Source: Bacteroidota bacterium (GTDB taxonomy: Bacteria > Bacteroidota > Ignavibacteria > Kapaibacteriales > HRBIN21). Taken from it: a stretch of DNA of 64,000 nt. The stretch covers positions 69,571 through 133,570 of the forward strand of contig JAUQPR010000003.1 in assembly GCA_030550275.1 (NCBI GenBank). The letters run 5' to 3'. Made by a program: the position numbers and the translations under genes. The notes under the pieces are model-generated. The model had not been told where the DNA came from. It ran no database searches and saw only the letters and a program-made list of their open reading frames with translations. Below are positions 7,099 to 55,298 of this stretch, one piece after another. How positions within the stretch are numbered: the stretch's first letter is position 1; each line of letters opens with the position of its first letter.

Positions 7099-7107
7099 TG
7101 CCGTGCC

Positions 7108-12667: not shown

Positions 12668-12754
12668 GGTGCTTGCCTACGGCTGTGGGCACATTCCGGC
12701 GCGCTCAGACGTCCTTTCCCCACAAAAGTATGCACTTCCCCGTAGATAGCCACA

Positions 12755-25291: not shown

Positions 25292-28200
25292 ATGCTACGT
25301 CGGCTGGGGATTGCCATCGCCGCGGTTGTGAGCGCTACGGCAGCGGGAACTGGCTTCATTGAGAACCAAGGGCAGGTGCGCGACCGCTTCGGGCAGCTTC
25401 GCCCGGACATCCTCTTCGTTGCTGAACTGCCGGGGATGGAGCTCTTCGTCCACACCCGAGGCATCAGCTACGTGTTCACCGTGGTGGAGCTCTCCGAGGA
25501 GCTTCCCCCTGAACACCGCTGGCGCCGCCTCAGCGCTCGCCGCTACCGACTCGACCTGGAGTGGCTCTCCGCAGAGCCCTTCTTCCGGGTGCGTGCATCG
25601 GGAGCGCATCCCATGCTGCGCCACTACTACCTGCCGGGACGCACGGCGTTGAACGTTGCCGCCTACCAGGAGGTACAGCTTGAGGAGCTCTACCCGGGCG
25701 TGACGCTTCGGCTGCGGCTGGGCAGCGAAGGGCTCAAGTACGACCTGCTGTGCCGCCGTGCCGAAGATCTCGCCCGCGTGCGCTTCCGCTACGTCGGCGC
25801 GCAGCAGCTCTCCCTGCAGCCCGATGGGAGCTTGCTGGTGCATACCCCGCTGGGCACGGTGCGCGAGCTTCCCCCGGTGGCATTCCAGCTCAATCGAACC
25901 CTTGCAGCCGCCTATCAGCTCCACGGCGATACTGTGAGCTTCCGCGCTGCCGAAGCGCTTCCCCACCTGCCGCTGGTCTTTGATCCCGGTGTGGCGTGGT
26001 CCACCTTCTATGGTGGAAGCCGGCTGGAGGACTTCACCGCCGTCGCCGCAGACGCTGCCGGGAATATCTACCTGGCGGGCTGGAGTGTGAGCACAGACTT
26101 CCCCGTGGTGAACGCCTTCCAACCCAATTTGCGCGACACCCTGGCAACGGACATCGTCGTAGTCAAGCTCTCCGCAGCGGGCTCTCCAATCTGGGCAACC
26201 TATTACGGCGGCGATAGCAGCGATGCCGCCTACGGCATCGCCTGCGATGGCTCAGGGGAGGTGGTGGTTGTGGGCACCACCACGAGCCCGAACTTCCCCG
26301 TCCAAAACGCCTTCCAGAGCACGCTCTCGGGCTACTCCGATGCCGTCATCGTGCGCTTCAACAGCTCCGGGCAGCGCCTGTGGGCAACCTACTACGGCGG
26401 CAGCGGTGAGGAGACCGCCTACGGTGTGGCATTCCACCGCAGTGGGATCTTCGTCGGCGGCACCACGAGCAGCACGAACTTCCCCGTGCTCAACGCGCTC
26501 CAGAGCGTCCATGGAGGTGGCACCACAGATGGCTTCGTGCTGAAGTTCTCCGCTGCCGGGCAGCGCCTGTGGGCAACCTACTACGGCGGCAGCGGTGAGG
26601 AGGACCTCCGAGGAATCGCCGCTGACAGCCTCGGTGCCGTTCTCGCTGTTGGCATGACCACGAGCACGAACTTCCCCGTGCAGAACGCACTGCAACCGAC
26701 CTACGGTGGCGGACTCTCGGATGCCTTCGTGCTCAAGCTCTCCGGCTCTGGGCAGCGCCTGTGGGCAACCTACTACGGCGGCAATCGGCTGGACTTCGGC
26801 TACGGCGTCGCCACCGACGTGCGCAACATGGTCTATATCTGCGGCAGCTCCCTCAGCGACTCCATCCCTATGCGCTACGCCTTCCAGTCGCGCCGAGTTG
26901 CTGCACTGGAGGCATTCATCGCAGCGCTGGACACCGTCGGAGGTCTGCTCTGGGGCACCTTCTACGGCGGCAACGGTGTGGATGAAGCTCGCGGCATCGC
27001 CACCACGCCGCAGCGCCGCATCCTTGTGGTCGGCTCCACCAACAGCTCGAACTTCCCGCTCAACCAGCCGCTCCAGAACAGCCATGCCGGCAATGGGGAT
27101 GCCTTTGTGGCAGCCTTCAACTACGTGGGCGTCCAACTGTGGTCGAGCTACTACGGCGGCTCCAGCGCCGACATCTTCTACCGCGTCGCCGCCGATAGCG
27201 CAGGGAACTTCACCGCGGCGGGCAACTCCACAAGCTCGGACTTCCCCCTGCAGAACGCCTTCCAAAGCACGCTCCGCGGCGGGATGGATGGCGTTGCCGT
27301 GCGGTTCGAATGGGAGAGCATCCGCTGCTGGCTCCTGCGCCCCGGTCCGCTGTGCCCTGGCGACACCATCAGCATTGGATTCGAGGCACGGGGCTACTTC
27401 TTCCCGGACAACGTCTTCACCGCCGTGCTCTCAGATTCCACCGGCAGCTTCAACACCTCCACGCTCATTGGCTCCCTTGCCGGGCAGAGCAGCGGAGTCA
27501 TCCTCGGGCGCATTCCGGATACGGTCTCTCCGAGCAAGCGCTACCGGATTCGCGTCCTGGGTTCGCGCCCTGCAACCATCGGGAGCCCCAGCGATAGCTT
27601 CACGATTCTGCCCCGCCCAACGCCGCCGGTGATCACCGTGGAGCCGGATACTGTGCTCTGCCCCGGCGACAGCGCTATCCTGCGCATCGAACCGCAGGAG
27701 ATGGCAACCTACCGCTGGCTGCTCAACGGCAATCCCATCGGGAGTGACTCACCGCAACTTGTCGCCCGACAAGCCGGACGCTACAGCGTCCTTGTGCGCA
27801 CCCCGTGCGGGGAGGTGCGCTCCCAGCGCGATATTGTGCTCACCAGCGCCAATAGACCCGCCATCCCACGAATCGAGGTCCTGGGAGCACGCCGCTTCTG
27901 CCGAGGAGATTCCGCTATCCTCCGCACCGCCAACCAGGGTGGGGAGACCTCCTACGAATGGCTCCGCAACGGCGTCCTCATAGGGCAGAATGCGCCGGTC
28001 CTGACCGTCTCCCAAAGCGGCAGCTACACCGTGGTGGTGGCGAACCTCTGCGGTCGCGTTGCTTCGCCGGATACGGTACACATCCTCGTGGATGAACCGC
28101 TGGCGCCTCCGGAGTTGGTTGCCGAGGGTGCCACGCGCTTCTGCCAAGGCGATTCCGTCGTGCTCCGTACCCGCGCCGACAGCGCCATCATGGAATACCG

Positions 28201-29962
28201 CTGGTACCGCGATGGAACGCTCTTCCTGCGTAACGAGCGTGCCTGGCGCATCGCCGTGCGGCAATCGGGATGGTACAGCGTGGAGATCGTCAACACCTGC
28301 GGCGCTGTCCGCTCCGATAGCCTCCGCATCGAGGTCATCCCTCGACCGCTCCCACCGCGCATCACCGTCGAAGGGGGAACGGTGCTGTGCGCTGGCGATA
28401 GCACCCGACTGCGCACGGCAGAGCAACCGGGCGCAACGTACCAGTGGTACCGCGACGGTCGAGCCGTTGGACCCAATGCCCCTGTCTACGTCGTCCGGGA
28501 ATCGGGCACCTACACGGTCGAGGTCCGCACCGAATGCGGCGCTGTGCGCTCGCCCGATAGTGTTGTCATCCGCGTGTTGGATGCTCCACCAACTCCGCCC
28601 CTGTATGCCAGCGGCGCACCCCGACTGTGCGAGGGAGATAGCCTTGAGCTCTGGACAGAGCCCTTCACCGGTGCCCAGTACCAATGGACCCGCAACGGAG
28701 CTCCCGTGGGGGCTGATACGAACGTGCTCGTTGTGCGCCAAGCCGGCGTGTATCGAGTTCGCCTGCTGACGCCTTGTGGGGAAGCTGTCTCCGATTCCCT
28801 CGTCGTCGAGGTGCTGAGTCCACCCCCGGCGCCGGTAGTGCAGCCGCTGGGTCCACTCCGGCTGTGTGAAGGGGATTCGCTGCAATTGGTGCTCCGAGAG
28901 CGGCTCTCGGGCATCCGCTACACCTGGTATCGGGATAGCCTCCCACTGCCGTACACCGGGGATACGCTCACCGTCAGCACAGCTGCGACGTACTGGGTCC
29001 AAGCATCCAACGAATGCGGGGAAGCAGCCTCCGAGCGCCTCACCGTCGTCGTGCTCCCACGCCCGCCGAAGCCGGAGATCGCCCAGCGCGGCGATACCCT
29101 GGTCTCCAGCTCCCCTGTGGGGAACCAATGGCTGGATAGCACCGGAGCTCCCATTCCTGGGGCAACGGAGCAGTACTTCGTGCCACCCGGCAGTGGGCGC
29201 TACCGCGTGCGCGTGACCATTGATGGCTGCGCTTCGGAATCCGACCCGTACGACTACGTAGCGCGCGTCCAGCCGGTTGCAGCAGGGCTTCGGCTGCCAC
29301 AGGGACGGCGCTATACTCCGGGAGAGCGTATCGAGCTGGAGCTGCTGCTCCTGCCCGCCGGGCAAGCGCTCCCGCCGGGGAGACTGAGTGCACGCCTGCG
29401 TTACTGGGCGCGAGTTCTGGAGCCGCTCGCTCCGACGCCCTTGGGCAGCCTCCAGCAGGGTTGGCGAACTCTGCCGGTGGAGCTGCGAATTCCTGCACTC
29501 CCTGCCGGGACGGCTCAGCTCCGGCTCGCAACGGGGCTGCTCTTCCGTGTCCTCTTGGGCGATAGGGACTATACCCCGCTTCTGCTGGACAGCCTGCAGT
29601 TCCATGCCGAACGCACCTTCCCCTTCGTCGCCCTGCCTCCGGACACCCTGTGGGTGGAGATCTGCCGCGAGGGTGGAGAACGCCTCTTTGACCCAGAAAC
29701 GCCAGCGCTGCAGCTGCGTATCCTGCCGAATCCCGCTGCATCCGCGCCGACACTGCACTACGCTATCCCCGAGCCAGGGGACATCCGCATCCGCATGTGG
29801 AGCCTCTACGGCACGGAGGTAGCACGGCTCGTCGAGGGCTTCCACCAGCCTGGTCACTACGAGCTCCTCCTGGACACCGAGCGGCTCCCTGCGGGCGTGT
29901 ACGTGGTGGCGTTGCAAACCCCGACCCAAGAGGTGCGAACACTCCTGTACTACGTGCCATGA
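25292..29962 (+). CDS. Giant exported T9SS cargo protein: signal peptide, about 10 SBBP beta-propeller repeats, 9 tandem Ig-like (I-set-like) repeats, T9SS type-A C-terminal sorting domain
   Basis: Signal MLRRLGIAIAAVVSATAAG. The repeat YYGGSG..D.A.GIA.D..G...VVG.T.S.NFPVQNAFQ occurs about 10 times (aa 240-640). Nine ~80-aa repeats carry the Ig signature P.P.I...G...LC.GDS..L......YQW.R.G.......SG.Y.V.V.T.CG (aa 770-1290). The C-terminus LRILPNPAASAPTLHYA..IRIRMWSLYGTEVARL...LPAGVYVVALQTP is a Por_Secre_tail-type CTD. Confidence 0.85.
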   Translation: MLRRLGIAIAAVVSATAAGTGFIENQGQVRDRFGQLRPDILFVAELPGMELFVHTRGISYVFTVVELSEELPPEHRWRRLSARRYRLDLEWLSAEPFFRVRASGAHPMLRHYYLPGRTALNVAAYQEVQLEELYPGVTLRLRLGSEGLKYDLLCRRAEDLARVRFRYVGAQQLSLQPDGSLLVHTPLGTVRELPPVAFQLNRTLAAAYQLHGDTVSFRAAEALPHLPLVFDPGVAWSTFYGGSRLEDFTAVAADAAGNIYLAGWSVSTDFPVVNAFQPNLRDTLATDIVVVKLSAAGSPIWATYYGGDSSDAAYGIACDGSGEVVVVGTTTSPNFPVQNAFQSTLSGYSDAVIVRFNSSGQRLWATYYGGSGEETAYGVAFHRSGIFVGGTTSSTNFPVLNALQSVHGGGTTDGFVLKFSAAGQRLWATYYGGSGEEDLRGIAADSLGAVLAVGMTTSTNFPVQNALQPTYGGGLSDAFVLKLSGSGQRLWATYYGGNRLDFGYGVATDVRNMVYICGSSLSDSIPMRYAFQSRRVAALEAFIAALDTVGGLLWGTFYGGNGVDEARGIATTPQRRILVVGSTNSSNFPLNQPLQNSHAGNGDAFVAAFNYVGVQLWSSYYGGSSADIFYRVAADSAGNFTAAGNSTSSDFPLQNAFQSTLRGGMDGVAVRFEWESIRCWLLRPGPLCPGDTISIGFEARGYFFPDNVFTAVLSDSTGSFNTSTLIGSLAGQSSGVILGRIPDTVSPSKRYRIRVLGSRPATIGSPSDSFTILPRPTPPVITVEPDTVLCPGDSAILRIEPQEMATYRWLLNGNPIGSDSPQLVARQAGRYSVLVRTPCGEVRSQRDIVLTSANRPAIPRIEVLGARRFCRGDSAILRTANQGGETSYEWLRNGVLIGQNAPVLTVSQSGSYTVVVANLCGRVASPDTVHILVDEPLAPPELVAEGATRFCQGDSVVLRTRADSAIMEYRWYRDGTLFLRNERAWRIAVRQSGWYSVEIVNTCGAVRSDSLRIEVIPRPLPPRITVEGGTVLCAGDSTRLRTAEQPGATYQWYRDGRAVGPNAPVYVVRESGTYTVEVRTECGAVRSPDSVVIRVLDAPPTPPLYASGAPRLCEGDSLELWTEPFTGAQYQWTRNGAPVGADTNVLVVRQAGVYRVRLLTPCGEAVSDSLVVEVLSPPPAPVVQPLGPLRLCEGDSLQLVLRERLSGIRYTWYRDSLPLPYTGDTLTVSTAATYWVQASNECGEAASERLTVVVLPRPPKPEIAQRGDTLVSSSPVGNQWLDSTGAPIPGATEQYFVPPGSGRYRVRVTIDGCASESDPYDYVARVQPVAAGLRLPQGRRYTPGERIELELLLLPAGQALPPGRLSARLRYWARVLEPLAPTPLGSLQQGWRTLPVELRIPALPAGTAQLRLATGLLFRVLLGDRDYTPLLLDSLQFHAERTFPFVALPPDTLWVEICREGGERLFDPETPALQLRILPNPAASAPTLHYAIPEPGDIRIRMWSLYGTEVARLVEGFHQPGHYELLLDTERLPAGVYVVALQTPTQEVRTLLYYVP

Positions 29963-30741
29963 CCCACCTGGGACGGTTCATCGGACTGCTCTGCTGCGGC
30001 ATCTCCACAGCGCTGGCGCAGTATGCTGCCGGCGTGAGTATCGGCGCTGGGGTGAACCTGCATACGGCGGACTTCCGCACTGTATCGCCGGACATCCCCA
30101 ACTGCTGCCCTGGCTTTGAAGCCGGAAGCGGAGCGGCATGGAGCCTGGGTCTGACCTACGATGGGCTCCCGCTTGCTCCCCGCCTTCGGCTCCTGGGCGA
30201 GCTGAACTACCTCCGGCGGGATGCACGGCTGACCCAGCGCGAGGCAATTGTGTTCAGTTCCGACGATGGGCGCGCCGTTGCTGGCACAGTGCAGCACGAG
30301 CTTCAGACCCAGCTGGCATCGCTGGGGATAACACTGCTGCTGGGGTATTCGCCGCTTGGCTCCGTGCCGAGCTTGCAGCTGCGAGCCGGCATCCACACGG
30401 GGTGGACGGTGCTGGCAGCGTTCTCTCAGCAGGAGCTCCTCGTGGACCCACCGTACGGGCGCTTTTTGGACACGGGCACGCGCTCGCGCAACCACTACAG
30501 CGGCAAGCTTCCCAACGCCAGTTCTGTATCGGTCCTTGCCACCGTAGGAGCGCGCTACCTGCTTCCCATCAGCGACCTCTTCAGCCTCATGCCGACGGTA
30601 TCGGGATGGTTTGGGCTCACTCCCGTCGTCTCCGGCATTGCCTGGCGGGCTCATGCCCTGCACTTCAGCATGGGGATTGTTTACTCGCCGCTGCCGGAGG
30701 CACCCTCACCGCTCCGTCCCGGCTCGCCGGAACGCCCCTGA
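29959..30741 (+). CDS. Small outer-membrane beta-barrel protein (PorT / OMP_b-brl_2-like porin family)
   Basis: ATG at 29959 overlaps the upstream TGA (ATGA). Signal MTHLGRFIGLLCCGISTALAQ. 260 aa with alternating hydrophobic beta-strand pattern (VSIGAGVNLHTADF, LGLTYDGL, LGITLLLGYSP). Confidence 0.55.
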   Translation: MTHLGRFIGLLCCGISTALAQYAAGVSIGAGVNLHTADFRTVSPDIPNCCPGFEAGSGAAWSLGLTYDGLPLAPRLRLLGELNYLRRDARLTQREAIVFSSDDGRAVAGTVQHELQTQLASLGITLLLGYSPLGSVPSLQLRAGIHTGWTVLAAFSQQELLVDPPYGRFLDTGTRSRNHYSGKLPNASSVSVLATVGARYLLPISDLFSLMPTVSGWFGLTPVVSGIAWRAHALHFSMGIVYSPLPEAPSPLRPGSPERP

Positions 30742-30743
30742 GC

Positions 30744-32051
30744 ATGCGCGCAAGCGCTGCAGCGGCAATCGCCCTCTATGGGCTCACCCTCTTTGCCCAG
30801 GAGCCCCCGGTGCTCCTGCGCGATCTGCGCATCTACGGTGGCACGGACGAGACCGCTCCCCCAATCCTCCAGCTCCCCTCGGAGGAGGCGCCATTGGAGG
30901 CGCCGGGCTACCCGTTTGTAACCCTGGAGCTCGACGTTGAAAGCCCGCTTCCGCCGGCGCTTCTGGCTCGGTTGGTCCACTGCCGTCCAGACTGGCAGGA
31001 GAGCCAAAATGTCTTCCTCGCCTTCGGTCTTGCGGGCACAACGCTCTTCTCCTGGGAGAGCGCTCCTGCCCCTTCGAGCTTCTACACCTACCGAGGGCGG
31101 CTTCGACTGCCCAACGCACAGCTCTCGGTGCCGTATGCGGGCAATTGGAAGGTGCTCCTCTACGACGCCCGAGCCCCAACGACCCCATTGGCGGAAGCTC
31201 GCTTCTTCGCTGTCAAGCCCGCAGCGGAGTGCCGTGTAACGGTGTACGCGGACCTCTATACGGCATCCCCCGGCGTTAGCCCTGCTGCGGTGACTGTGGA
31301 AGCCTGGGTCCGCCCCCTTTCGGCTCGCCGTACCGACCGCCGCCTCCATACGGTGGTCTTCTACCGCAACCACCGCTGGTGCGAGCCGTACGTGGTCACC
31401 CAGGATGCCCGAATCGCCGACACGCGCCAGCTCTACAGCACGGGCTACCGCAGCAGTATCTCTGGGATGCTCCCGGCAGGGAAGCTCTTCCGGGTGGAGC
31501 AGCTCCCGGCGCAGAACGAGTACCGAGTGCTGGACCTGAGCAATCCCGCACAGTTCCCTCCCGGTGCTGCTCAGCCCATCCGGCTCCCCATGGCGGATCT
31601 GCGCCGCCGGGGCAACTTCTGGGAGTTCGCCGATGATGGTGCCCTCCGCTCCGCCCATCTTCCTCCGCATCTGCAGGACTACATTCCCGTGGAGTTCATC
31701 CTCGACCCCGAAGGCGCCCCACCCAGCGCGCAGGAGCTCTTCCTGGTGGGCTCCTTCAACCACTGGTGTCCTTCGGCACAGTGGCAGCTTGCCTGGGATG
31801 AGCAGGAGGGCGTCTACCGGCTCCGACAGTTGCTGCGGCGCGGGCGCCACAACTACCTCTACGCCACCGGTCGGCTCAACGCCGACACACGCCAGGTCGA
31901 AGCGCTCGATTTCACCGAATGGGAGGGCAACACGACCGCTGCGCGGCACACCTTCTTTGCCTTCGTGTACTACCTGGAGCCCGATTTCGGCGGCTACGAT
32001 GCCCTCATCGCCGTCGGAGCCGCCAGTATCTACGGTCCGCTCCGCCGCTAA
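30744..32051 (+). CDS. Exported protein of unknown function (435 aa); DUF5103-like T9SS-associated protein is a low-confidence possibility
   Basis: ATG at 30744, 3 bp after the upstream stop. Signal MRASAAAAIALYGLTLFAQ. No motif I can assign confidently. The context (cargo then beta-barrel then this gene) suggests a secretion link. Confidence 0.4.
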   Translation: MRASAAAAIALYGLTLFAQEPPVLLRDLRIYGGTDETAPPILQLPSEEAPLEAPGYPFVTLELDVESPLPPALLARLVHCRPDWQESQNVFLAFGLAGTTLFSWESAPAPSSFYTYRGRLRLPNAQLSVPYAGNWKVLLYDARAPTTPLAEARFFAVKPAAECRVTVYADLYTASPGVSPAAVTVEAWVRPLSARRTDRRLHTVVFYRNHRWCEPYVVTQDARIADTRQLYSTGYRSSISGMLPAGKLFRVEQLPAQNEYRVLDLSNPAQFPPGAAQPIRLPMADLRRRGNFWEFADDGALRSAHLPPHLQDYIPVEFILDPEGAPPSAQELFLVGSFNHWCPSAQWQLAWDEQEGVYRLRQLLRRGRHNYLYATGRLNADTRQVEALDFTEWEGNTTAARHTFFAFVYYLEPDFGGYDALIAVGAASIYGPLRR

Positions 32052-33385: not shown

Positions 33386-34060
33386 TCATCGCCGACGAAC
33401 CTCCAGGACTGCCGAGAGCGGAACCTCAATTCCGCCAAGCCGGAGATAGGCGCCATCGGCAGCAAATCTGACCGCTTCCACAACACCTTCGACGAACGCG
33501 CCCAGCTCCTGTTCCCCACCCGTCTCCATCGTTGCCACGATCCGAATGCGGTACTCCCCTGCCGGGAGCCGATTCCCCGCCGCATCTGTGCCATCCCATT
33601 CAAACCACTGCTCTCCTGCCGATACCCCACGCCGCTCCACAGAGCGCAGCACCCGACCATCGGACGCCAGGACCTCCATCCGCACTGCTGCAGTGCCTTG
33701 GGGAACTTCGCAGCCCACCCGTACCGAACCCTGCACTCCCAGCAGGAGCTTTCCAGTCTCTGCCCGCACTGTACTGCCCAGCAACGCCGGTGCAGAAGCA
33801 CTCCCGATGCCCTCCATGAGCGCTGAGAGTTGCCCCACCTCCAGCTCCATCAACTGCCGCATGGAGAGGAGCTGCTCCAATTGCGAGAACACCGCCAGTT
33901 GGGCTGCCAGCTCCTGCCCGTCGTACGGGCGCACGGGGTTTTGGAGTCGGAGCTGCATGGTCAGCAGCTTCAGGAATGCATCCCTGCCCATCTCCGTGCG
34001 CTGGGGCTGGAGAGCCTTCGTCGAGAGCGATTGTGGTGCAATTGCATCAACCCTTGGCAT
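33386..34060 (-). CDS. flgD: Flagellar hook capping / assembly protein FlgD
   Basis: FlgD N-terminal motif DAFLKLLTMQLRLQNPVRPYDGQELAAQLAVFSQLEQ. C-terminal Ig-like (FLgD_ig) segment. Confidence 0.8.
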   Translation of the reverse strand: MPRVDAIAPQSLSTKALQPQRTEMGRDAFLKLLTMQLRLQNPVRPYDGQELAAQLAVFSQLEQLLSMRQLMELEVGQLSALMEGIGSASAPALLGSTVRAETGKLLLGVQGSVRVGCEVPQGTAAVRMEVLASDGRVLRSVERRGVSAGEQWFEWDGTDAAGNRLPAGEYRIRIVATMETGGEQELGAFVEGVVEAVRFAADGAYLRLGGIEVPLSAVLEVRRR

Positions 34061-35075
34061 GGACTGCTCCCGTGGAGGGTGTCACATCTTGGCTTGTCGC
34101 GGCAGCGGCGTTCCGATGCCACCGGAAGGAGGACACAAACCGATGGCGCTCCCGGTACTCCTGCGCATCGGGATTACCCTGAGGGAGAGATCCGCCGGAG
34201 AAGCCCATCTCCGAAGAGCGGACCCGCACCTCCAGCAGCTCCAACCGAAGTTGTCGTCCCGCAAGCATCCGCTCCAGCTCTGCGGTATTGCTGCCCAAGG
34301 TCCGCCCCAGCTCGCTGGATTCCGTCTCCGCTTGCACTCGGACGGAATCCTCCGCCACCGCCACCGATAAGGCGAGAGTGCCCCACTGGGGCAACTCTAC
34401 CCGCATGTGCGCAACCGCTGGGGGATGCTCGCTGCGCCCCGCTGCTGCGCTCCGCATGAGCTCCTGCAGAAAGAGCGTCCGGAGCTGCATCTCCAAAGCG
34501 TGCTGCCCGGTTACGCCTTGCAGTGTCGGTGGACTCCCTTGCTCCGAGCCTACCGCACCACTCGCCGTGCTCATGGCAGAGAATGCTCCCGCGTGCACTC
34601 CCTGGAGCCCATCGGCTCCGTTCGGTGGAGCAAATTCTCCGAACCTCGCCTGCGCTTCTCCTTGACCGCCTTCCGGCAAGAGCACCTCGGCAGCTGGATT
34701 CGCCTGGGAGGTCTCCGGACCGGATGCCTGAGGGTCCGCAGGCTGGGCAGCCCCCAAGGGGTTGTCCATGAGTGCCTGCCCGAGCCCACATTCGGGCTTG
34801 TGGAATGCCCTCGCCGTTTGGTGTGGAAACCCAAATCCAGCGTCTCCGTTGGGAACCGCCGTCGGTAGAGCAGAAGCCGTAGCGCCAGGAGCAGCGCCCT
34901 CCCCTCCGGGCAGGATGCGCGGGAGCATCTGCATTGCCTGCAGCAGTGCAGCAAACCCGTACGCGTTCTCTCCTACAGGCTCCCCCTGCTGCGACGGCGT
35001 CCTCGTCCCGCCGAACGGCTGGCTTCGTGGCAGCTCTCCACCCCAGCGGATGTGCATCCTGCACCGTTGGCTCAT
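34047..35075 (-). CDS. fliK: Flagellar hook-length control protein FliK-like
   Basis: Low-complexity A/G/P-rich N-terminal region. C-terminal Flg_hook-like domain (RVELPQWGTLALSVAVAEDSVRVQAETESSELGRTLGSNTAELERML). Overlaps the flgD start by 14 bp. Confidence 0.6.
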   Translation of the reverse strand: MSQRCRMHIRWGGELPRSQPFGGTRTPSQQGEPVGENAYGFAALLQAMQMLPRILPGGEGAAPGATASALPTAVPNGDAGFGFPHQTARAFHKPECGLGQALMDNPLGAAQPADPQASGPETSQANPAAEVLLPEGGQGEAQARFGEFAPPNGADGLQGVHAGAFSAMSTASGAVGSEQGSPPTLQGVTGQHALEMQLRTLFLQELMRSAAAGRSEHPPAVAHMRVELPQWGTLALSVAVAEDSVRVQAETESSELGRTLGSNTAELERMLAGRQLRLELLEVRVRSSEMGFSGGSLPQGNPDAQEYRERHRFVSSFRWHRNAAAATSQDVTPSTGAVHAKG

Positions 35076-35561: not shown

Positions 35562-36149
35562 TCAGTACTGCAGCGCTCGGAGAACTCCGGTAAACAGACG
35601 CTCCTGCTCCTCCGGTGCCGGAGGTTCGATCGGACGCAGCTTCAACGGGAGCAACACGACCTCGTAGACGTTCCCCGCCGAGGAGACGAACACCGCTGCC
35701 CGCGCCTCCACACCCTCCTGGGCAAAGCGGTAGGTTACAAAGGTCCTGGGACCAATTCGCAGCAACTGGTAGTCTCCACTCAGCTTCACCCCAGCACCGG
35801 TCCGGCGGAGCCGGCGCTGGAAGCTCTCCTGCGCCAACTGCAGGAGGTCGTACGTGGCGACCTGCCCCGGCGAGCCGGAACGCACGAATACCAGCACCAG
35901 TCCGAGGGTGTACTCCGGGTTCACCGCCGTCGCCACCACGCCGGCAGGGGCAAGCTCCCCCAGCTCCAGTGTAATCCACCCCTCCGGCAGGAACAGCAGG
36001 ACATCCTCCCCAGGCGAGCGCACGGGGTCCTCCGATAGCGGAATCCCGGGCTCCGGCGAGAGCTCAGCTACCCACGACGGTCCCGTTGGCTGCCGCATCA
36101 GCAGCGCGCACCCTGCGAGCAGCACCAACGTCAGTACGGCAGCTCTCAT
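35562..36149 (-). CDS. Lipoprotein of unknown function
   Basis: ATG 36149-36147 forms an ATGA overlap with the DUF1684 stop. Signal plus lipobox MRAAVLTLVLLAGCALL. Confidence 0.5.
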   Translation of the reverse strand: MRAAVLTLVLLAGCALLMRQPTGPSWVAELSPEPGIPLSEDPVRSPGEDVLLFLPEGWITLELGELAPAGVVATAVNPEYTLGLVLVFVRSGSPGQVATYDLLQLAQESFQRRLRRTGAGVKLSGDYQLLRIGPRTFVTYRFAQEGVEARAAVFVSSAGNVYEVVLLPLKLRPIEPPAPEEQERLFTGVLRALQY

Positions 36150-36808
36150 CGCTGGACCTTGGAGGTGCACATCCTCTCCCCGGCCCGGATGGGGATGGGA
36201 AGCCGATTCTCTGCCGGAACCACTGGGCAGGCGTACTCCTCGTTGTAAGCGCAGTAGGGATTGAAGGCGCGGTTGAAGTCCAGCACGTACTCCTCCTCCC
36301 CAGGCTCCTCCTGCAGCTCCAAATACCGCCCTCCGGCGTAGGTCTCTTGCCCAGTGGTAGCATCGGCGAAGGGAATAAACAGCAGCCCGCCCTCCTCCAG
36401 GGGCTTGTACACTGTCAACGACAGCACCGTATCCCCCAGGGGGAAGAGGAGGCGACCGTACCGCAGCATCCGATGCCGATATCCGGCACGTGTGGAAGCG
36501 AGCTCAACGGTATCCAGGCGCTGGAAGCGCTGCAGTGCCGCCGGGAGGACGTATTCCCTCGTCGGCGGGTAGTAGCACAGCCCCGCAAAGTGCCGCCGCT
36601 GTGGGAGCGGGATGGGGGAATCCGGCGCACTCCGAAACGCCTCATCCTTGAGCCGTCGTTCGGTCAGCACCTCCAGCGAATCCCACTCAGGCTCCAGCGA
36701 TTCCTCTCCGCTCCGGCTGTCATCGGCGCACCCAGGAGCTTCCCACAACAGCACGACCAAGAGGGCGCCAGGGCACAGCGTTTTCCACAGGCTTTTCCAC
36801 ATCCTCAC
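36146..36808 (-). CDS. DUF1684 domain lipoprotein
   Basis: Lipobox LLWEAPGCADD. C-terminal DUF1684 signature YVLDFNRAFNPYCAYNEEYACPVVPAENRLPIPIRAGE. The first 9 codons overlap two DnaA-box-like motifs, so the start may be M3 (36802). Confidence 0.65.
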   Translation of the reverse strand: MRMWKSLWKTLCPGALLVVLLWEAPGCADDSRSGEESLEPEWDSLEVLTERRLKDEAFRSAPDSPIPLPQRRHFAGLCYYPPTREYVLPAALQRFQRLDTVELASTRAGYRHRMLRYGRLLFPLGDTVLSLTVYKPLEEGGLLFIPFADATTGQETYAGGRYLELQEEPGEEEYVLDFNRAFNPYCAYNEEYACPVVPAENRLPIPIRAGERMCTSKVQR

Positions 36809-37016
36809 ACCAAGTTTTCCACACAGGTGTGGAAAGCGCGGAGGTTATCCACATCGCCCCCCTGCGCGCGTATTTTCCACAGGCGTATCCCCACGAATTC
36901 CACACAGCATTCGGGCAGAGCCTGGGCTGTCCAATTCATTGTCCAACATTGGGATAGGCGGAGCCGGCATCCGGTTTTCCACATTTCCACAGCTCCTCTC
37001 ATCGCCACATTCCACA
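36781..37016. promoter_or_regulatory. Array of ten DnaA-box-like 9-mers (TT[A/T]TCCACA); candidate oriC or DnaA-regulated promoter
   Basis: Perfect TTTTCCACA at 36781, 36793, 36815, 36873 and 36975. Perfect TTATCCACA at 36845. Variants: CTTTCCACA on the reverse strand at 36828-36836 (forming a 9-bp-arm inverted repeat 36816-36835 with the 36815 box), AATTCCACA at 36896, ATTTCCACA at 36983, CATTCCACA at 37008. Lower-GC stretch at 36925-36955. Confidence 0.6.
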
Positions 37017-37025
37017 AGGAAGCAC

Positions 37026-38291
37026 TCACCGGATGATGTCAAAGCCGCAGTAGGGGCGGAGAGGCTCAGGGATGCTGATAGCTCCGTCAGGAGTCTGGCA
37101 CTGCTCCAACAGGGCAACCATCAAGCGAGGCGTTGCCAAACCGCTTCCATTGAGCGTATGGACAAAGCGCGGTTTCTCGCCCGGAGCTGGGCGGTATCGG
37201 ATTCCGGCGCGCCGGGATTGGAAATCCTCGAAATTGGAGCAGCTTGAAACCTCCAACCACCGCTGCTGGCAGGGCGACCAAACCTCCAGGTCGTAGGTCT
37301 TCGCGCTGGCAAATCCTAAGTCACCAGCGCAGAGCACAACAACGCGGTAGACCAACCCCAAGGCTTGGAGCAGCTCCTCTACTTCGGCAACCAGCTTCTC
37401 CAGCTCCTCGTACGACTCCTCAGGGCGGCAGAATTTGACCAACTCGACCTTGTTGAACTGGTGCATTCGGACCAACCCGCGGGTCTCGCGCCCGTAGCTT
37501 CCGGCTTCGCGGCGGAAGCACGCAGAGTAGCCGCAGAGCTTAATTGGGAGCTTCTCAGCGGGGAGGACCTCGTCGGCGTAGTAGTTCGTCAAGGGGACTT
37601 CGGCGGTGGGGATGAGATAGAGGTCATCGTGCTCGATGTGGTACATGTCCTCCCGAAGCTTGGGGAGTTGTCCGGTGCCCTGCATTGCCTTAGGGGTGAC
37701 CAGGAAGGGCGGGAAGACCTCCTGGTATCCATGGCGCTGGATGTGGAAATCGAGCATGAAGTTGAGCAGCGCCCGCTCCAATTGAGCCCCCTTTCCGGTG
37801 TAGAACACGAAGCCGCTTCCGCTGACCTTTGCGGCGCGGGGGAAGTCCAGCAACCCCAGGTGGGAGGCGATTTCGAGATGGTCCCTCCGAAACTCCTTCG
37901 GCTGTGGAGTGCCCCAGCGGCGGACCTCTACGTTCGCCTCCTCTGTTGCCCCATCGGGGACGCTGGGATGTGGAAGGTTGGGCAGTAGCAGGAGCCGCTC
38001 GTTGAGCTGGTGCTCCACCTCCTGAAGCTCGTCCTCCATGGAACGGAGCTGTTCGGCGATCGCCTTGAGAGAGGCGAGCAGCTCTTCGCAGGGTTGCCCC
38101 TGCTGGCGGCGCCGAGCAACTTCGTTCTGCGCGGACTTCCGCTGGTGGCTGAGCGATTCGATCTGGCGCAGGAGTTCGCGCCGCCGGGAATCCAACTGCA
38201 GGATCTCCTCCAGGTCGTAGGAGTCTCCACGCCGGCGGAGCTGTGCGGCGATCTCCTCCGGGCGCTCACGGATGAGCTTCAGGTCGAGCAT
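37026..38291 (-). CDS. serS: Seryl-tRNA synthetase
   Basis: ORF 37026..38405 trimmed to ATG 38291 (MLDLKLIRERPEEIAAQLRRRG). Class II aaRS motifs are present (FRREAGSYGRETRGLVRMHQFNKVE, GSGLATPRLMVALLE). 421 aa. Confidence 0.9.
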   Translation of the reverse strand: MLDLKLIRERPEEIAAQLRRRGDSYDLEEILQLDSRRRELLRQIESLSHQRKSAQNEVARRRQQGQPCEELLASLKAIAEQLRSMEDELQEVEHQLNERLLLLPNLPHPSVPDGATEEANVEVRRWGTPQPKEFRRDHLEIASHLGLLDFPRAAKVSGSGFVFYTGKGAQLERALLNFMLDFHIQRHGYQEVFPPFLVTPKAMQGTGQLPKLREDMYHIEHDDLYLIPTAEVPLTNYYADEVLPAEKLPIKLCGYSACFRREAGSYGRETRGLVRMHQFNKVELVKFCRPEESYEELEKLVAEVEELLQALGLVYRVVVLCAGDLGFASAKTYDLEVWSPCQQRWLEVSSCSNFEDFQSRRAGIRYRPAPGEKPRFVHTLNGSGLATPRLMVALLEQCQTPDGAISIPEPLRPYCGFDIIR

Positions 38292-38416
38292 TACTGCATC
38301 GTCGCAGTGGAAGAGGCACCAAAAATACCAAACCGCGGCGGGCTTGCTGTCGGAAACAGGGCAGAGCAACGGCTTGCGCTTGTGTATTTTTGCTCGATGT
38401 TCCACAGGCAGTGCTC

Positions 38417-44921: not shown

Positions 44922-45944
44922 CTACGGCTGCCCATCGGTTGGGGTGTACGTCGGAACGTCGATGACGCGGCGAAGACCCGTGCTGCCACGGTCGCGGCGC
45001 TCGATGGCAACCAACGCAGCGGCGTAGATCTCGCGCCAGGTGACACCGAACTTCTCCATCAGCTCCTCCGGCTCGCCGCTGCCGCCGAAGGTATCGCGAA
45101 TGCCCACGAACTCAATTGGGACGGGGTAGTTCTTCGCCACAATCTCGGCAACGGCGCTGCCCATGCCTCCGTGGATCTGGTGCTCCTCGGCGGTCACGAT
45201 TGCCCCGCACTCGCGGGCAGCAGCCACGATGGTCTCGATGTCCATCGGCTTGATGGTGTGGTTGTTGATGACCCGTGCCTGGATGCCGCGCTTGGCAAGC
45301 ATATCGGCTGCCAGGAGCGCTTCCCAGACCATTGCGCCGCAGGCGATGATGGCAACATCGTTGCCCTCGCGGAAGATCTCCGCTCGCCCGAGCTGGAAGG
45401 GTGTCTCCTCCGTGGTGAACCAGGGAACGGCGGCGCGCCCGAAGCGAACGTACGCCGGACCCCACATCTCGCCGATGGCGATGGTGGCTTTCTTGGTCTC
45501 CATGTAGTCGCACGGCACCACCAGGGTCATCTTGGGAAGGGTCCGGATGACGGCGATCTCCTCCAGCGCCTGGTGCGTTGCGCCATCCGGACCGACGCTC
45601 ACGCCGGCATGCCCTCCGCCGATCTTCACGTTGACCTCGTTGTAGCAGACCGAGATTCTGAGCTGGTCGGCATTGCGGAAGGCGCAGAAGGCGCCGTAGC
45701 TGGCAAAGAAGGGGATCTTGCCCGAAAGGGCTAATCCGACGGCGATCGTTGTGGCGTTTTGCTCGGCAACCCCGATGGAGAAGAAGCGGTCAGGGAATCG
45801 GTCGCGGAAGAGCGAGGTCATGACCGATTCGGTGATGTCCCCACCGAGCACGACGACGTTGTCGTAGCGTTCACCGAGCACGACCAGCCCTTCCCCAAAG
45901 CCTTGGCGAGTTGGTTTCTTGCCCAGGAGCCGAAATTCCGGCAT
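44922..45944 (-). CDS. Transketolase, C-terminal (pyrimidine-binding) subunit of a split transketolase
   Basis: Motifs FFSIGVAEQNATTIAVGLAL, GPDGATHQALEDIAV-like (GPDGATHQALEEIAVIR), and the C-terminal transketolase_C domain. Confidence 0.85.
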   Translation of the reverse strand: MPEFRLLGKKPTRQGFGEGLVVLGERYDNVVVLGGDITESVMTSLFRDRFPDRFFSIGVAEQNATTIAVGLALSGKIPFFASYGAFCAFRNADQLRISVCYNEVNVKIGGGHAGVSVGPDGATHQALEEIAVIRTLPKMTLVVPCDYMETKKATIAIGEMWGPAYVRFGRAAVPWFTTEETPFQLGRAEIFREGNDVAIIACGAMVWEALLAADMLAKRGIQARVINNHTIKPMDIETIVAAARECGAIVTAEEHQIHGGMGSAVAEIVAKNYPVPIEFVGIRDTFGGSGEPEELMEKFGVTWREIYAAALVAIERRDRGSTGLRRVIDVPTYTPTDGQP

Positions 45945-45953
45945 GGTCTCCGC

Positions 45954-46583
45954 TCAAGGATTGTTCAACGAGCGAGCAAATCGGCTGTAGCGCTCCTGCG
46001 GGAGATAGTCCAGCAGGCGCGCCCAGGAGAGCGCTTGCGGCAATCGCCCACCCTCCCCATGAATCAGGAAGCGCCCGTAGAGCAGCGCGCGCAGCTTCCC
46101 GTTGCGCGTAGTTTGGTCCCAGAGCACGTAGCCGCTGCCCGAGGGCAGACGCACGAACTCCAGCACCTGCGCGGGGTAGTCCTTCCCCGGCGCCTGGAGA
46201 TGGCGCTGCTCCTGCTGCAGCTCGGTGGGGACCTCCGCAAGGTCGCTCACGCTCAGCCAGAGGTAGCCTCTGTTGGAGAAGCGGAACTCCCGTGTTGCCG
46301 TGGTGATGGCGCCTTCGGGCTCGCGGACCCGGCGCCCGAAGGTTGCGGGGAAGACCTCTCGGACCTCCGGCAGCGTGGTTGGCAGAAGGGTTGCCAACGT
46401 CTCCGCGGGCACTGCCGAGAGCGCACCACCGGAGGGAACGGGTGCCGGAGCCGGCGTACCCGAGACCGGCGCTGCAGCCGCTGGTTGCTCTGCGGTGGGG
46501 GCAGCCGACCCCGGTGCCGGGCTCTCCGGACGCGCGCATCCCAGCAGGGCAGCGGTGCCGATGCAGAGGAGCCAGCGACTCAT
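45954..46583 (-). CDS. Lipoprotein of unknown function, encoded between the two transketolase subunit genes
   Basis: ATG 46583-46581 forms an ATGA overlap with the upstream subunit stop. Lipobox ALLGCARP. Pro/Ala-rich linker, then about 130 aa of globular sequence with no recognisable motif. Confidence 0.5.
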   Translation of the reverse strand: MSRWLLCIGTAALLGCARPESPAPGSAAPTAEQPAAAAPVSGTPAPAPVPSGGALSAVPAETLATLLPTTLPEVREVFPATFGRRVREPEGAITTATREFRFSNRGYLWLSVSDLAEVPTELQQEQRHLQAPGKDYPAQVLEFVRLPSGSGYVLWDQTTRNGKLRALLYGRFLIHGEGGRLPQALSWARLLDYLPQERYSRFARSLNNP

Positions 46584-47506
46584 GTTGCCTCGCTGGGTTC
46601 GACAACGGCGATGTAGGGGTCCTCCAGCTCCTGCAATGCCCGCAGTGCCTGTTCGGGTGTGGGAGGCTTCCCGTGCCAGCGGTAGTCGTCCTCCATGAAG
46701 GAGACGCCCTTGCCCATCTTCGTGTGGGCGATGATGACGGTCGGCTTGCCAATGCCACGGCGATGGTTCTCCAGGAACTGCTCAAAGCAGGCGGCGAGTT
46801 GGGCGTAGTCGTGTCCGTCGCACTCGAGCACCTCGAAGCCGAATGCCTCGAACTTCTTGTCCAGCGGGTAGATGCTCATGACGTCGCGGACCCGCCCGTC
46901 AATCTGGCAGTCGTTGTTGTCCACAATCCAGCACAGGTTATCCAGCCGGTAGTGTGCGGCAGCCATAGCGGCTTCCCAGACCGAGCCCTCCTGGAGCTCG
47001 CCATCGCCGGTGAGGGAGAAGACGCGCCGGTCGTTCTTGTCCAGCCACTTATCGCTGAGCGCCATGCCGACGGCGATGGAGATGCCCTGCCCCAGCGATG
47101 CGGTGGAGGTTTCGATGCCGGGCAAGCCCATATCGCGCCCAGGGTGCCCCTGGAGGCGGCTGCCGTACTTGCGTAGTGTGCGCAGCTCCTCGATGGGGAA
47201 GAATCCCGCCCGCGCCAAGGTCGAATACAGCACCGGACAGAGGTGCCCGGCGCTGAGCACATACCGATCGCGCCCAGGCCACCACGGCTCCTGCGGGCGA
47301 TAGCGCATGAAGCCACCGAAGAAGAGCACGGCGTGGATGTCGGCGGTGCCCAGTGGACCTCCGCTGTGCCCGGAGCCTGCCAGCACCAGCATTTTGATGA
47401 TGTCGCGCCGGATTTCACGGGCGATTTCGGCAAACTCGTGCGGCTGGCGTGGGCGATTCTCGTAGACGGTTGGGCTGAAGACGATGCGCAGGTTGTGCAC
47501 CTCCAT
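46580..47506 (-). CDS. Transketolase, N-terminal (TPP-binding) subunit of a split transketolase
   Basis: ORF 46580..48328 trimmed to ATG 47506 (MEVHNLRIVFSP). Everything upstream is low-complexity and antisense to nothing conserved. TPP motifs SGHSGGPLG and GDGELQEGSVWEA. Confidence 0.8.
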   Translation of the reverse strand: MEVHNLRIVFSPTVYENRPRQPHEFAEIAREIRRDIIKMLVLAGSGHSGGPLGTADIHAVLFFGGFMRYRPQEPWWPGRDRYVLSAGHLCPVLYSTLARAGFFPIEELRTLRKYGSRLQGHPGRDMGLPGIETSTASLGQGISIAVGMALSDKWLDKNDRRVFSLTGDGELQEGSVWEAAMAAAHYRLDNLCWIVDNNDCQIDGRVRDVMSIYPLDKKFEAFGFEVLECDGHDYAQLAACFEQFLENHRRGIGKPTVIIAHTKMGKGVSFMEDDYRWHGKPPTPEQALRALQELEDPYIAVVEPSEAT

Positions 47507-47635
47507 GGACGGTGCAGCAGTTGAGCAACTTGCAGTGTCACGCAAACTTACGAAAGCCCAGGCAGCGCGCCGGCTCAAGGGCTTGAAGCGGGGGCGTAAT
47601 TTTGTGCCGGTTACACTGTCGCTCTCTTGCGCCAA

Positions 47636-50623: not shown

Positions 50624-52984
50624 CACGATGCACGGAAGGCTCCAGGAGCGCAGCCCGGTGCGGAGTCGGAGCTGGTAAAATCCCGGGGCAAGCTCGTGCG
50701 GCAAGCGGAAGGAGGCAAAGCCCTCGGCGCCGTGCACCAGCGCCTGCCAAATCCGGACACCGTGCACGGAGACCAGCTCCAGCAGCACTGTGCTGCTTTC
50801 CGGCTCTCCGAGCTCGAGGGTGGCGTATTCGCCGCGCCGGAGCGGGTGCGGCAGGAGCCGAGGCATCGGCTTCTCGGCGGCTTCCAGCACGGGGAGGGTT
50901 GTATCGCCGAACTCCCATATCCGGATTCGGGTCAGCCAAACGCCGTCGAAGCTCCCCGAAGCGTCGCTCAGCAACCGGAAGCGGAGCAGAAGCGGCTTCC
51001 CAGCAACGCCGGCGAGCACCGCCCGCTGCGGAATCCACAGCGGGAAGTTCCCATCGAAGCCGTAGCCGCTCTCCTGGCGGCTGGAAGCGATTCCGGAGGC
51101 AGGGCGCATGCGCTCGGTTCGGACGGGCTGCCAGCGTGCGCCACCATCGGTGGAGAACTCCACAACGGCGAAATCGAAGCGGGCTTCCACGCTCCAGCGT
51201 ATCCAGAACTCCAGGACCGCTGTGCTGCGGGGGGTGATAGTGACGGGCAGGCGCTGTTGCAGCACCAGAGTCGCCGAATCCGGATATGCCCCATCGGGGC
51301 TGTCGGTCAGTGCCCATTGCTCCACGGTGGAGTCGTACGCCAGCGCCCAGTCCCGGAGGTCCCAGTACACCGAGTCTGCGGGCTGCTCAAAGAGCGTGTG
51401 CACGACTGGGCGTCCTCCCCACAGAGAGAGCGTATCGCGGCGCAGGACGCCGTCCTGCTCCAGTTGCAGCTCCAGGTGCAGCGGTGCACCGTTGGGGCGT
51501 CCGGAGGCGTAGTGCAGCGACCACGTCCCCACAGTGCACTGCGCCGGTGGCAGTTCGGGGAGCTGGAGCGGGGAATTGCTCACCTGGACGAGGCTGTCCA
51601 GGCTGACGATACGCACGGCGGCACCGGCAGGGGCGGTTTGTGCCCCGAGATTGCACAGCTCCAGGCGCAGGGTTGGCGAAGGCTCCCACTGCAGCTCCCA
51701 TCGGAATGGGCGGAGATTGGCTCCCGCGCTCCAGGCGATCTGTCGGTTGAGCCAGAGGTTCTCCCGCGCGTGGGGAAGGATCCGTTCGGGCTCGGGCCAG
51801 AAGCCGTCCAGGAGCGAGCCGACCTCGGCGGTCATCGCAAGCGTCTTGGGTTTGCCGTCGCTTGTGTCGTACATCCAGTCGTCGGAGGCGCCGCGCACGG
51901 CATAGCCGACCGTTTCCCGGTCACGTCCGAACGAATACAGGCTGGGGCGCGAAGCCTCGGCACAGAGCAGGCGGTAGAGGAGCGAATCCGGCGTCTCCCG
52001 CGGCAGCGCCGCGTATGGGTAGATGAGGAACTCGCCGTAGGTGTGGTAGTTCAGCGCCGTGTGGAAGGGGAGGCTCAGGCAGAGGTCTCGGAGCGCCTGG
52101 GTCTCCGGCTCGGAGAAAGGGGCGGTTCCGCGGTAGGTGTCCGAGCGCGGGTTGGTTGAGGAGCCTCGGTTGGGGGAATCCCAGAAGTGCGGTGGACCGT
52201 AGTTGCGGTTGAGGTCTACGCCGTAGCTGCCATCGGGGTTGGGACGGCGGTTTTTGCGCCACATGCCGCCACCCTCTGGAGCGGTCTCTTCGTTGTAGGC
52301 GTAGCCGTCGGGATTGACTACCGGGACGACGTAAAGCAGCCGATTGCGCAGCAGGAAGAGCGCCTCCGGGTCGCCGCGCCGTGCTCCTTCCAGCAGCCAC
52401 CACAGGAAGTACACCAGCGTGGTCACGCCGCCAGGTTCGCGGGCATGGTGCAGAGCCGTGTAGAGAGCCGCCGGGACGGTGTCCGGGTTCGCCGCCAGGG
52501 TGAAGCGGTAGCCGTAGATGGGGCGCCCCTCGACGGAGTAGCCGATGATCTCCGGCTCGGAGACGGCTTCGGGGAGGAAGCGGCGCATGCGGTCGAATTC
52601 CTCGAAGATCTCGTGTAGCCGGTAGAAGCCGCCGAGTGTGCCCAAGCGGAAGTTGGCAGGGTCATCCGCTGTGGGCGTGGGGAGGGCTGCCCGACGAATC
52701 CGCTCCCTGTAGAAGGCGGCAAGGTCAGCGATGAGCGTATCCAGCCGAAGTCCCGACTGCTGCAGTTGTGCAACGCCGGAAGCCGGGAGCACCGCCGTCA
52801 GGCAATGGCTGCCAAGCCGGAGGCTATGCTCGTCGGCGCCAGCATCCCAGAGGAGCTGCCAGGGGAGCGAATCGCTCCAGCAGAGACGGACCAGCATGAA
52901 GGGCTCCGGTGGAGAGACCCTGAGCGGTTGCGCCAGCGCAGAGCCGGCGCACAGCAATGCCACGGTAGCGTTGCGGAGGCTCAT
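50618..52984 (-). CDS. Secreted M14 zinc carboxypeptidase with T9SS C-terminal sorting domain
   Basis: Signal MSLRNATVALLCAGSALAQ. M14 motifs (HAREPGGVTTLVYFLWWLL, NPDGYAYNE, VDLNRNYG, the YHTYGE region). C-terminal LLPHPLRRGEYATLEL..VLLELVSVHGVRIWQAL...LAPGFYQLRLRTG is a T9SS CTD. Confidence 0.8.
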   Translation of the reverse strand: MSLRNATVALLCAGSALAQPLRVSPPEPFMLVRLCWSDSLPWQLLWDAGADEHSLRLGSHCLTAVLPASGVAQLQQSGLRLDTLIADLAAFYRERIRRAALPTPTADDPANFRLGTLGGFYRLHEIFEEFDRMRRFLPEAVSEPEIIGYSVEGRPIYGYRFTLAANPDTVPAALYTALHHAREPGGVTTLVYFLWWLLEGARRGDPEALFLLRNRLLYVVPVVNPDGYAYNEETAPEGGGMWRKNRRPNPDGSYGVDLNRNYGPPHFWDSPNRGSSTNPRSDTYRGTAPFSEPETQALRDLCLSLPFHTALNYHTYGEFLIYPYAALPRETPDSLLYRLLCAEASRPSLYSFGRDRETVGYAVRGASDDWMYDTSDGKPKTLAMTAEVGSLLDGFWPEPERILPHARENLWLNRQIAWSAGANLRPFRWELQWEPSPTLRLELCNLGAQTAPAGAAVRIVSLDSLVQVSNSPLQLPELPPAQCTVGTWSLHYASGRPNGAPLHLELQLEQDGVLRRDTLSLWGGRPVVHTLFEQPADSVYWDLRDWALAYDSTVEQWALTDSPDGAYPDSATLVLQQRLPVTITPRSTAVLEFWIRWSVEARFDFAVVEFSTDGGARWQPVRTERMRPASGIASSRQESGYGFDGNFPLWIPQRAVLAGVAGKPLLLRFRLLSDASGSFDGVWLTRIRIWEFGDTTLPVLEAAEKPMPRLLPHPLRRGEYATLELGEPESSTVLLELVSVHGVRIWQALVHGAEGFASFRLPHELAPGFYQLRLRTGLRSWSLPCIVL

Positions 52985-55257: not shown

Positions 55258-55298
55258 ACGCAGCGCAAAAATACAGCATTTCGCACTTCTCGAGGGCA

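Follow-up and report, generated by a model that had tools for sequence, protein, structure and literature searches.

The DNA analysed here is a 64,000-nucleotide stretch of contig JAUQPR010000003.1 (assembly GCA_030550275.1, Bacteroidota bacterium), hereafter called the window. Near its middle, serS and a gene encoding a DUF1684 lipoprotein-like protein are separated by a 223-bp intergenic gap, and both flanking genes, as well as the string that DUF1684 heads (two hypothetical genes, fliK, flgD and flgE), are on the minus strand. Gene positions come from Pfam scans and from gene calls made for identical metagenome contigs, and this gene context, including the presence of DnaA-box-like motifs within the first DUF1684 codons, agrees with what had been described in the original prediction, made from the sequence of this locus. 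Most of the gap is occupied by an array of these motifs, next to which the GC skew of the DNA changes sign. We propose that the array is very likely a DnaA-dependent chromosomal origin of replication (oriC) located away from dnaA, in an uncultured Kapabacteria-type bacterium of the Bacteroidota/Chlorobiota group. By its RuvB protein, this organism sits beside metagenome-assembled genomes (MAGs) named Candidatus Kapabacteria bacterium (83%), Chlorobiota bacterium (83%) and bacterium HR21 (80%), and the same species is present in many public metagenomes.

A motif search of the 64 kb recovered the five perfect TTTTCCACA boxes, all on the plus strand, and the perfect TTATCCACA box at the positions originally given for them (Table 1). 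No TTTTCCACA copy was found on either strand of the window outside the 203 bp from 36781 to 36983, which contain all five, for a chance expectation of 0.15 per window; five copies were reached in none of 100 shuffles. The TTATCCACA copy at 36845 is also the only one in the window (0.07 expected). Four additional boxes had been proposed as one-mismatch variants. This proved correct for two of them, CTTTCCACA at 36828 on the minus strand and ATTTCCACA at 36983 on the plus strand, while the others carry two mismatches and number three (GTATCCCCA at 36885, AATTCCACA at 36896 and CATTCCACA at 37008), or four when counting CTTCCCACA at 36739, a doubtful box inside DUF1684 that is not conserved. One criterion for recognizing an oriC is the presence of several TTWTNCACA-type boxes in a short, mostly non-coding region: here, six perfect boxes, two with one mismatch and three with two mismatches are gathered in 36781–37016. 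Ten of these 11 boxes share the same orientation, with their CACA end towards serS, and the densest 260-bp segment of the window holds 11 boxes at ≤2 mismatches, compared with a maximum of four elsewhere in the 64 kb. The pair of boxes in opposite orientation had been predicted to form an inverted repeat; its 9-bp arms (36816–36824 and 36827–36835) are indeed 100% complementary. A repeat search of the array returned no repeats besides the boxes, and GATC, GANTC, AGATCT and TTAA motifs are all absent from it.

The composition of the window changes at the same place. The GC skew of the plus strand is negative from position 1 to ~37 kb and positive from ~37 to 64 kb, with 35 of the 37 1-kb blocks negative on the left of 37 kb and 25 of the 27 blocks positive on its right. 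The cumulative G-C curve of the window reaches its minimum at 37,502, and a single-change-point model places the transition at 37,510, where the skew passes from -0.067 to +0.075 with a log-likelihood ratio of 101, a value matched in none of 500 shuffles of the 1-kb blocks. A skew minimum near 36.9 kb had been set beforehand as a test of the origin hypothesis, and at the scale of the window the hypothesis passed it. On the left side, the skew at third codon positions is -0.145 for plus-strand genes and -0.139 for minus-strand genes, and on the right side it is +0.130 and +0.110, respectively. Because third-codon-position skew flips alike on both gene strands, the change reflects replication rather than gene orientation, and its minus-to-plus polarity is the one expected at an origin and not at a terminus. 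Using contigs of the same or a closely related strain, we could follow the skew beyond the window: its signs persist for ~6 kb past the left end (tig-clpP-clpX) and for ~9 kb past the right end (Sua5, SecDF, purA and PolX), and these two extensions contain no second skew switch, no dnaA and no further box cluster. Location at the cumulative-skew minimum, a second criterion for oriC, is thus observed over the ~80 kb followed.

Further support comes from related lineages. DUF1684 homologues sharing 88, 86, 63, 63 and 62% identity with the protein of the window were traced to contigs L093, L094, L096, L099 and L095, respectively, and all five have kept the same gene order (transketolase genes, Na+/H+ exchanger, CCA/poly(A) polymerase, BamB-like, DJ-1 and pyk, then serS, DUF1684, fliK, flgD and flgE). 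In each of them, 10–12 boxes occupy the serS/DUF1684 junction, the skew turns from minus to plus no more than ~0.7 kb away, and an overlapping tandem pair of boxes, TTTTCCACATTTCCACA, lies beside the serS stop codon; a reverse-oriented box is also found in L093–L096 at the place of the 36828 box of the window. In the intergenic alignment, 55% of the columns are invariant within boxes versus 11% in the spacers (Fisher p = 4e-12), and the indels between lineages have lengths that are not multiples of three. Boxes kept in position and orientation among related genomes, which is another criterion for oriC, are therefore observed in five further lineages. A logo pooled from 58 boxes of five lineages has an almost invariant TCCACA at positions 4–9, T>A>G at position 3 and a loose position 1, matching the degeneracy known for DnaA boxes. 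On contigs L097 and L098 (the latter a Kapabacteria MAG), more divergent DUF1684 genes located away from serS are accompanied neither by a box cluster nor by a skew switch, from which we conclude that the array belongs to the chromosomal position and not to the DUF1684 gene. A serS query against genome contigs gave matches of at most 60% identity from mixed phyla and no close relatives. Among the serS loci fetched from the Fibrobacteres-Chlorobi-Bacteroidetes (FCB) group, including Ignavibacteria and Kapaibacterium, none has a box cluster next to serS; the serS-linked origin thus appears to be specific to this Kapabacteria-like clade.

Table 1. Features of the serS/DUF1684 region and promoter-like motifs of the window (positions in the window).
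Feature	Position	Strand	Remarks
DnaA-box array, core of the predicted oriC	36781–37016		Spans most of the 223-bp serS/DUF1684 gap and the first 22 bp of DUF1684
Box TTTTCCACA, perfect	36781–36789	+	Within DUF1684 codons 5–8; conserved in relatives
Box TTTTCCACA, perfect	36793–36801	+	Within DUF1684 codons 1–4; reverse complement ATG TGG AAA A...; invariant in alignment A1
Box TTTTCCACA, perfect	36815–36823	+	Left arm of the inverted pair; core invariant in alignment A1
Box CTTTCCACA, one mismatch	36828–36836	-	Sole reverse-oriented box of the window's array; reverse box at the same place in L093–L096
Box TTATCCACA, perfect E. coli consensus	36845–36853	+	TTGTCCACA or TTTTCCACA at the same place in relatives
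Box TTTTCCACA, perfect	36873–36881	+	Motif search
Degenerate box GTATCCCCA, two mismatches	36885–36893	+	Counterpart in L093 is ATGTCCACA
Degenerate box AATTCCACA, two mismatches	36896–36904	+	Motif search
Overlapping tandem pair TTTTCCACA/ATTTCCACA	36975–36991	+	Best conserved element of the array; near-identical in six of six lineages
Degenerate box CATTCCACA, two mismatches	37008–37016	+	Kept in close relatives; absent from L095, L096 and L099
Candidate unwinding element A (putative)	36927–36956		Ranks first in instability among the 30-mers within ±10 kb (z = 3.5) and second in the 64 kb; 40% GC
Candidate unwinding element B (putative)	36992–37025		34 bp from the tandem pair to the serS stop codon; trio-like CTC-ATC units
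GC-skew sign switch, ~95% support interval	37030–37601		Maximum likelihood 37,510; minimum 37,502
DUF1684 lipoprotein-like gene, left-hand flank	36146–36802	-	Heads DUF1684, two hypotheticals, fliK, flgD, flgE
serS, right-hand flank	37026–38291	-	Transcribed towards the array; Pfam scan and gene calls
TAnnTTTG copies	3642–3649 (-), 3679 (+), 12723–12730 (-), 22217 (+), 38320–38327 (-), 38385–38392 (+), 47543–47550 (-), 47597 (+), 55266–55273 (-), 57618 (+)		

The combination of a DnaA-box cluster with a minimum of the GC disparity is the standard criterion for oriC identification (PMC10225481). By analogy with characterized origins, ATP-DnaA would bind the ~11 TTWTCCACA-type boxes, oligomerize along them and open the duplex on the serS-proximal side, either at the 30-mer 36927–36956 or in the 34 bp that separate the conserved tandem pair from the stop codon of serS. 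Forks would then depart in both directions, leaving over evolution an excess of G over C on the plus strand to the right and of C over G to the left. The array would probably be the sole origin of the replicon.

The choice of these two sites follows from the orientation of the boxes. In the R1/13-mer arrangement of E. coli, the unwinding side lies at the CACA end of the origin-proximal box and, applied to the present array, this designates candidates A and B (Table 1). Candidate A is located 22 bp past the eight left-hand boxes, beyond a GC-rich spacer. It corresponds to a segment around 36925–36955 that had been presented as the only markedly lower-GC stretch of the window, which is not accurate, 36927–36956 being the second least stable 30-mer. 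A GC-rich hairpin, GGGCAG...CTGTCC at 36913–36932 on the plus strand, followed by AATTCATTGT, sits exactly where the GC-rich spacer meets the low-stability 30-mer; it was scored as terminator-like, but such counts are at chance level in the region. Candidate B contains two trio-like units, CTC-ATC, at 36998–37003, in the canonical orientation of basal unwinding system (BUS) origins, and the support interval of the skew change point begins immediately to its right. Two trio-like units are likewise found at the tandem pair in L093, L094 and L095, three (CTC-ATC-ATC) in L099 and at most one in L096. The trio search was run first with the published rule and then in all orientations, the orientation being derived from the E. 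coli oriC R1/13-mer sequence. The rule calls for a box with ≤2 mismatches, usually paired, a spacer of ≤16 bp and ≥3 NAN trios on the strand complementary to TTATCCACA (PMC8287927). It returned no match in the window, L093, L094 and L095, one match at chance level in L096 and a true match after the tandem pair in L099. A canonical BUS/DnaA-trio origin was thus rejected for the window, which has fewer than three trios, and we do not claim membership of this class.

The initiator gene is not found in the vicinity of the array. Pfam scans of the window detected no dnaA, dnaN, parAB or mnmG, and a scan of its six-frame translation for DnaA signature motifs was negative. The original prediction was right in stating that dnaA and dnaN are missing and that rsmG lies 16 kb away (52981–53661) without mnmG (gidA) or parAB. 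Linkage to the indicator genes dnaA, dnaN or mnmG is usual for an oriC but not obligatory, and here rsmG alone is near. Since dnaA is not nearby, origin and initiator gene are unlinked in this clade. Among the readings offered by the original prediction, an oriC displaced from dnaA is the one supported by the skew switch, its independence from gene strand and its recurrence in five related lineages. The two other readings, a titration or DARS-like locus and a DnaA-regulated promoter, have not stood up, as neither predicts a skew switch or 10–12 boxes.

Several observations nevertheless weigh against the array being the origin. The skew was followed over ~80 kb of the replicon and a second minimum could lie beyond; within the window, genes are not co-oriented with the inferred forks, the minus strand carrying 52% of those to the left and the plus strand 41% of those to the right. 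There is no clear AT-rich unwinding element, as candidate A has a GC content of only 40% over 30 bp, and at the site homologous to it low stability is strong only in L096 and weak in L093–L095. The alternative of a BUS-type opening finds its full rule in one of the six lineages (L099) and not in the window. The binding of DnaA to the boxes is itself a prediction, and neither dnaA nor dnaN, mnmG or parAB is found from about -43 to +36 kb in the window and the contigs extending it. Finally, in Melioribacter roseus (Ignavibacteria), the closest cultivated lineage with a published prediction, the oriC was assigned from a GC-skew transition and DnaA boxes to the 303-bp dnaA-dnaN intergenic region (PMC3534657), unlike the present case where no dnaA or dnaN is found within ~40 kb on either side.

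Given its position directly upstream of DUF1684, and partly inside this first gene of the string, the array could instead be a DnaA-controlled promoter or operator of DUF1684-fliK-flgD-flgE that couples hook expression to the replication cycle, with no origin at this place. DnaA acts as a transcription factor in other bacteria. The hallmark of DnaA-regulated promoters is one box, or a few, overlapping or flanking the promoter. However, as far as recognizable promoter types are concerned, the minus strand of the array lacks -7, sigma-54 and sigma-28 motifs in each of five lineages, the ten to twelve boxes far exceed known DnaA operators, and DUF1684 genes that are not beside serS have no boxes. 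This explanation, which would also leave unaccounted for the skew switch seen at this very site, whatever the gene strand, in six lineages, is in our opinion very improbable, although a promoter function in addition to the origin function is possible. The same skew switch, found within ~0.5 kb of the array in all six lineages, argues against a locus for DnaA titration or recycling, of the datA/DARS type, away from the true origin, since nothing would require a titration site to lie where leading and lagging strands meet. Such a locus would be in line with the clustering of high-affinity boxes and with the lack of a dnaA nearby and of a strong unwinding element. In E. coli, datA and DARS have 3–5 boxes each and are not at the skew switch, whereas the 11 boxes of the array coincide with it, and we give this possibility very little credit.

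It could also be argued that the skew changes sign at the edge of an old inversion or other rearrangement, and that the motif is the site of another protein (TTTCCACA) or the origin of an integrated element. Indeed, inversion end points also flip the sign of the skew, and ~80 kb of the replicon were examined. However, such an inversion would need one end point precisely at the sole DnaA-box cluster and a length of at least 36 kb, and the flanks consist of housekeeping genes whose synteny is conserved (serS, pyk, DJ-1, CCA/poly(A) polymerase and the flagellar hook genes), while rep, integrase and partition genes are absent from them. Another DNA-binding protein is at odds with the perfect TTATCCACA box and with the variants of the relatives (TTGTCCACA, TTATCCACA and TTTTCCACA), which all stay within the DnaA-box family. 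We find this combination of events the hardest of all to believe, and the interpretation of the array as an oriC away from dnaA is retained in what follows.

The predicted origin is of an already known kind and reveals no new mechanism; what is unusual is its place, between serS and a flagellar hook operon. In E. coli, oriC lies between mnmG/gidA and mioC, ~40 kb from dnaA. The present array resembles it in being unlinked from dnaA, in having a ~250-bp region for DnaA oligomerization with roughly 11 sites, in the adjoining genes being transcribed towards the origin and in the presence of rsmG (gidB) in the wider neighbourhood, at 16 kb. It differs from it by the absence of GATC sites, of mnmG/mioC and of the three AT-rich 13-mer repeats, and nearly all of its boxes point in one direction, where E. 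coli has two opposed half-sites. With cyanobacterial origins such as those of Cyanothece ATCC 51142 (PMC4674748) and Synechococcus lividus PCC 6715 (PMC6323995), it shares the TTTTCCACA box, with TTATCCACA tolerated, and many boxes within a few hundred bp, and these origins can also sit far from dnaA and dnaN. TTTTCCACA is listed as a cyanobacterial DnaA box and is an accepted variant, and origins distal to dnaA/dnaN are documented, for example in the prediction for S. lividus PCC 6715 (PMC6323995). Unlike the cyanobacterial cases, the host is of Kapabacteria type, the flanks are serS and the flagellar hook string, and the GC skew is strong, whereas many cyanobacteria have no clear GC skew (PMC10225481). 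As in BUS origins, for example B. subtilis incC (PMC8287927, PMC6669920), a tight tandem pair (36975–36991) is followed on the CACA side by a short spacer and CTC-ATC units, but the window has only two trio-like units where the rule needs at least three.

For an uncultured, thermophile-associated lineage, comprising relatives of bacterium HR21 and Candidatus Kapabacteria, this provides a well-supported origin assignment at a site, the serS/DUF1684 junction, to which an origin-finding program using dnaA as default indicator would not lead. As the species is common in metagenomes, knowing its origin permits growth-rate estimates from coverage (peak-to-trough ratio) and a correct assignment of replichores. 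It also indicates that the TTTTCCACA box is not restricted to cyanobacteria, and that the linkage between origin and dnaA was lost within the Bacteroidota/Chlorobiota/Ignavibacteria radiation, Melioribacter having retained a dnaA-dnaN origin.

The two leftmost boxes overlap the start of DUF1684, where they correspond to codons 1–8 (ATG TGG AAA AGC CTG TGG AAA ACG), encoding MWKSLWKT, a lipoprotein-like signal-peptide start. In L095 the protein begins with MWKTVWKT, encoded by the boxes of that lineage. The Trp-Lys repeats in the n-region of the DUF1684 signal peptide are dictated by the origin boxes, or have co-evolved with them.

We also considered how the genes next to the array could be transcribed. 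No sigma-70-type promoter match was found in the array, and TAnnTTTG, sigma-54 and sigma-28 motifs were found in none of five lineages on its minus (coding) strand; a promoter inside the array was rejected, as sigma-70, Bacteroidota -7, sigma-54 and sigma-28 motifs were not detected. TAnnTTTG, the Bacteroidota-type -7 element, has only ten copies in the 64 kb, each just upstream of a gene start and often arranged as divergent pairs (metK/amidohydrolase, serS/pyk and DXS-N/gcvP), and the serS/pyk pair is conserved in the relatives (invariant in L093–L096). This indicates that the organism uses Bacteroidota-style sigma-A promoters. No terminator-like site was found after serS on the minus strand. 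With neither a terminator detected for serS nor a promoter for DUF1684, the DUF1684-hook string could be transcribed through oriC. One may then imagine that transcription starts at the serS promoter and that read-through helps to open an origin devoid of a canonical AT-rich element or a full run of DnaA trios, the occupancy of ~11 boxes by DnaA acting as a roadblock that gates the hook genes according to replication status, but this scenario as a whole seems to us rather unlikely. An effect of DnaA occupancy on transcription into the DUF1684/hook string, secondary to the role of the array as an origin, is nonetheless a possible prediction.

Other elements were tried and rejected. A bipartite origin involving the serS-pyk intergenic region (38292–38390) was discarded because its only conserved elements are the two TAnnTTTG motifs, the box at 38398 not being conserved. 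An RNA element was rejected for lack of any Rfam match at E≤1, and a small protein gene within the array because indels are not multiples of three and conservation tracks the boxes. Public annotations contain spurious calls of 54–65-amino-acid open reading frames, at 36805–36984 (minus strand) in the window, 9801–9998 in L094, 9810–9995 in L095 and 7092–7256 in L091.

Elsewhere in the window, a motility/regulation cluster (6205–10500, minus strand) encodes CheR, a FapA-like protein, a sigma-54-dependent response regulator and a histidine kinase. This cluster, along with fliK, flgD and flgE, indicates that the Kapabacteria-like organism is flagellated. Its hook genes may depend on sigma-54, yet no -24/-12 motif occurs upstream of DUF1684. 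The start of fliK (34047–35075, minus strand) differs among public assemblies, giving proteins of 240, 336, 342 or 344 amino acids, so its N-terminus is uncertain. Adjoining flgE in all relatives is a trio of genes, located at 25292–32051 on the plus strand of the window, for a 1556-amino-acid surface-type protein (DUF7948, SBBP and Ig-like repeats), a 260-amino-acid hypothetical protein and a 435-amino-acid type 9 secretion plug-domain protein. On the other side of the array, 44922–47506 (minus strand) encodes a split transketolase-like enzyme whose DXP_synthase_N/Transketolase_N and Transket_pyr/Transketolase_C halves are separate genes, with a conserved gene for a 209-amino-acid hypothetical protein between them.

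Among all the serS loci fetched, dnaA was found only in those of Nitrospirota and Firmicutes. It lies within ~7–9 kb of serS in several unrelated phyla (L026, L027, L042 and L059 from Nitrospirota, L064 from Peptococcaceae and L070 from Clostridia), and L070 has in addition a nine-box cluster ~5 kb from serS. In many lineages serS thus seems to be proximal to the origin, even where its linkage to dnaA differs.

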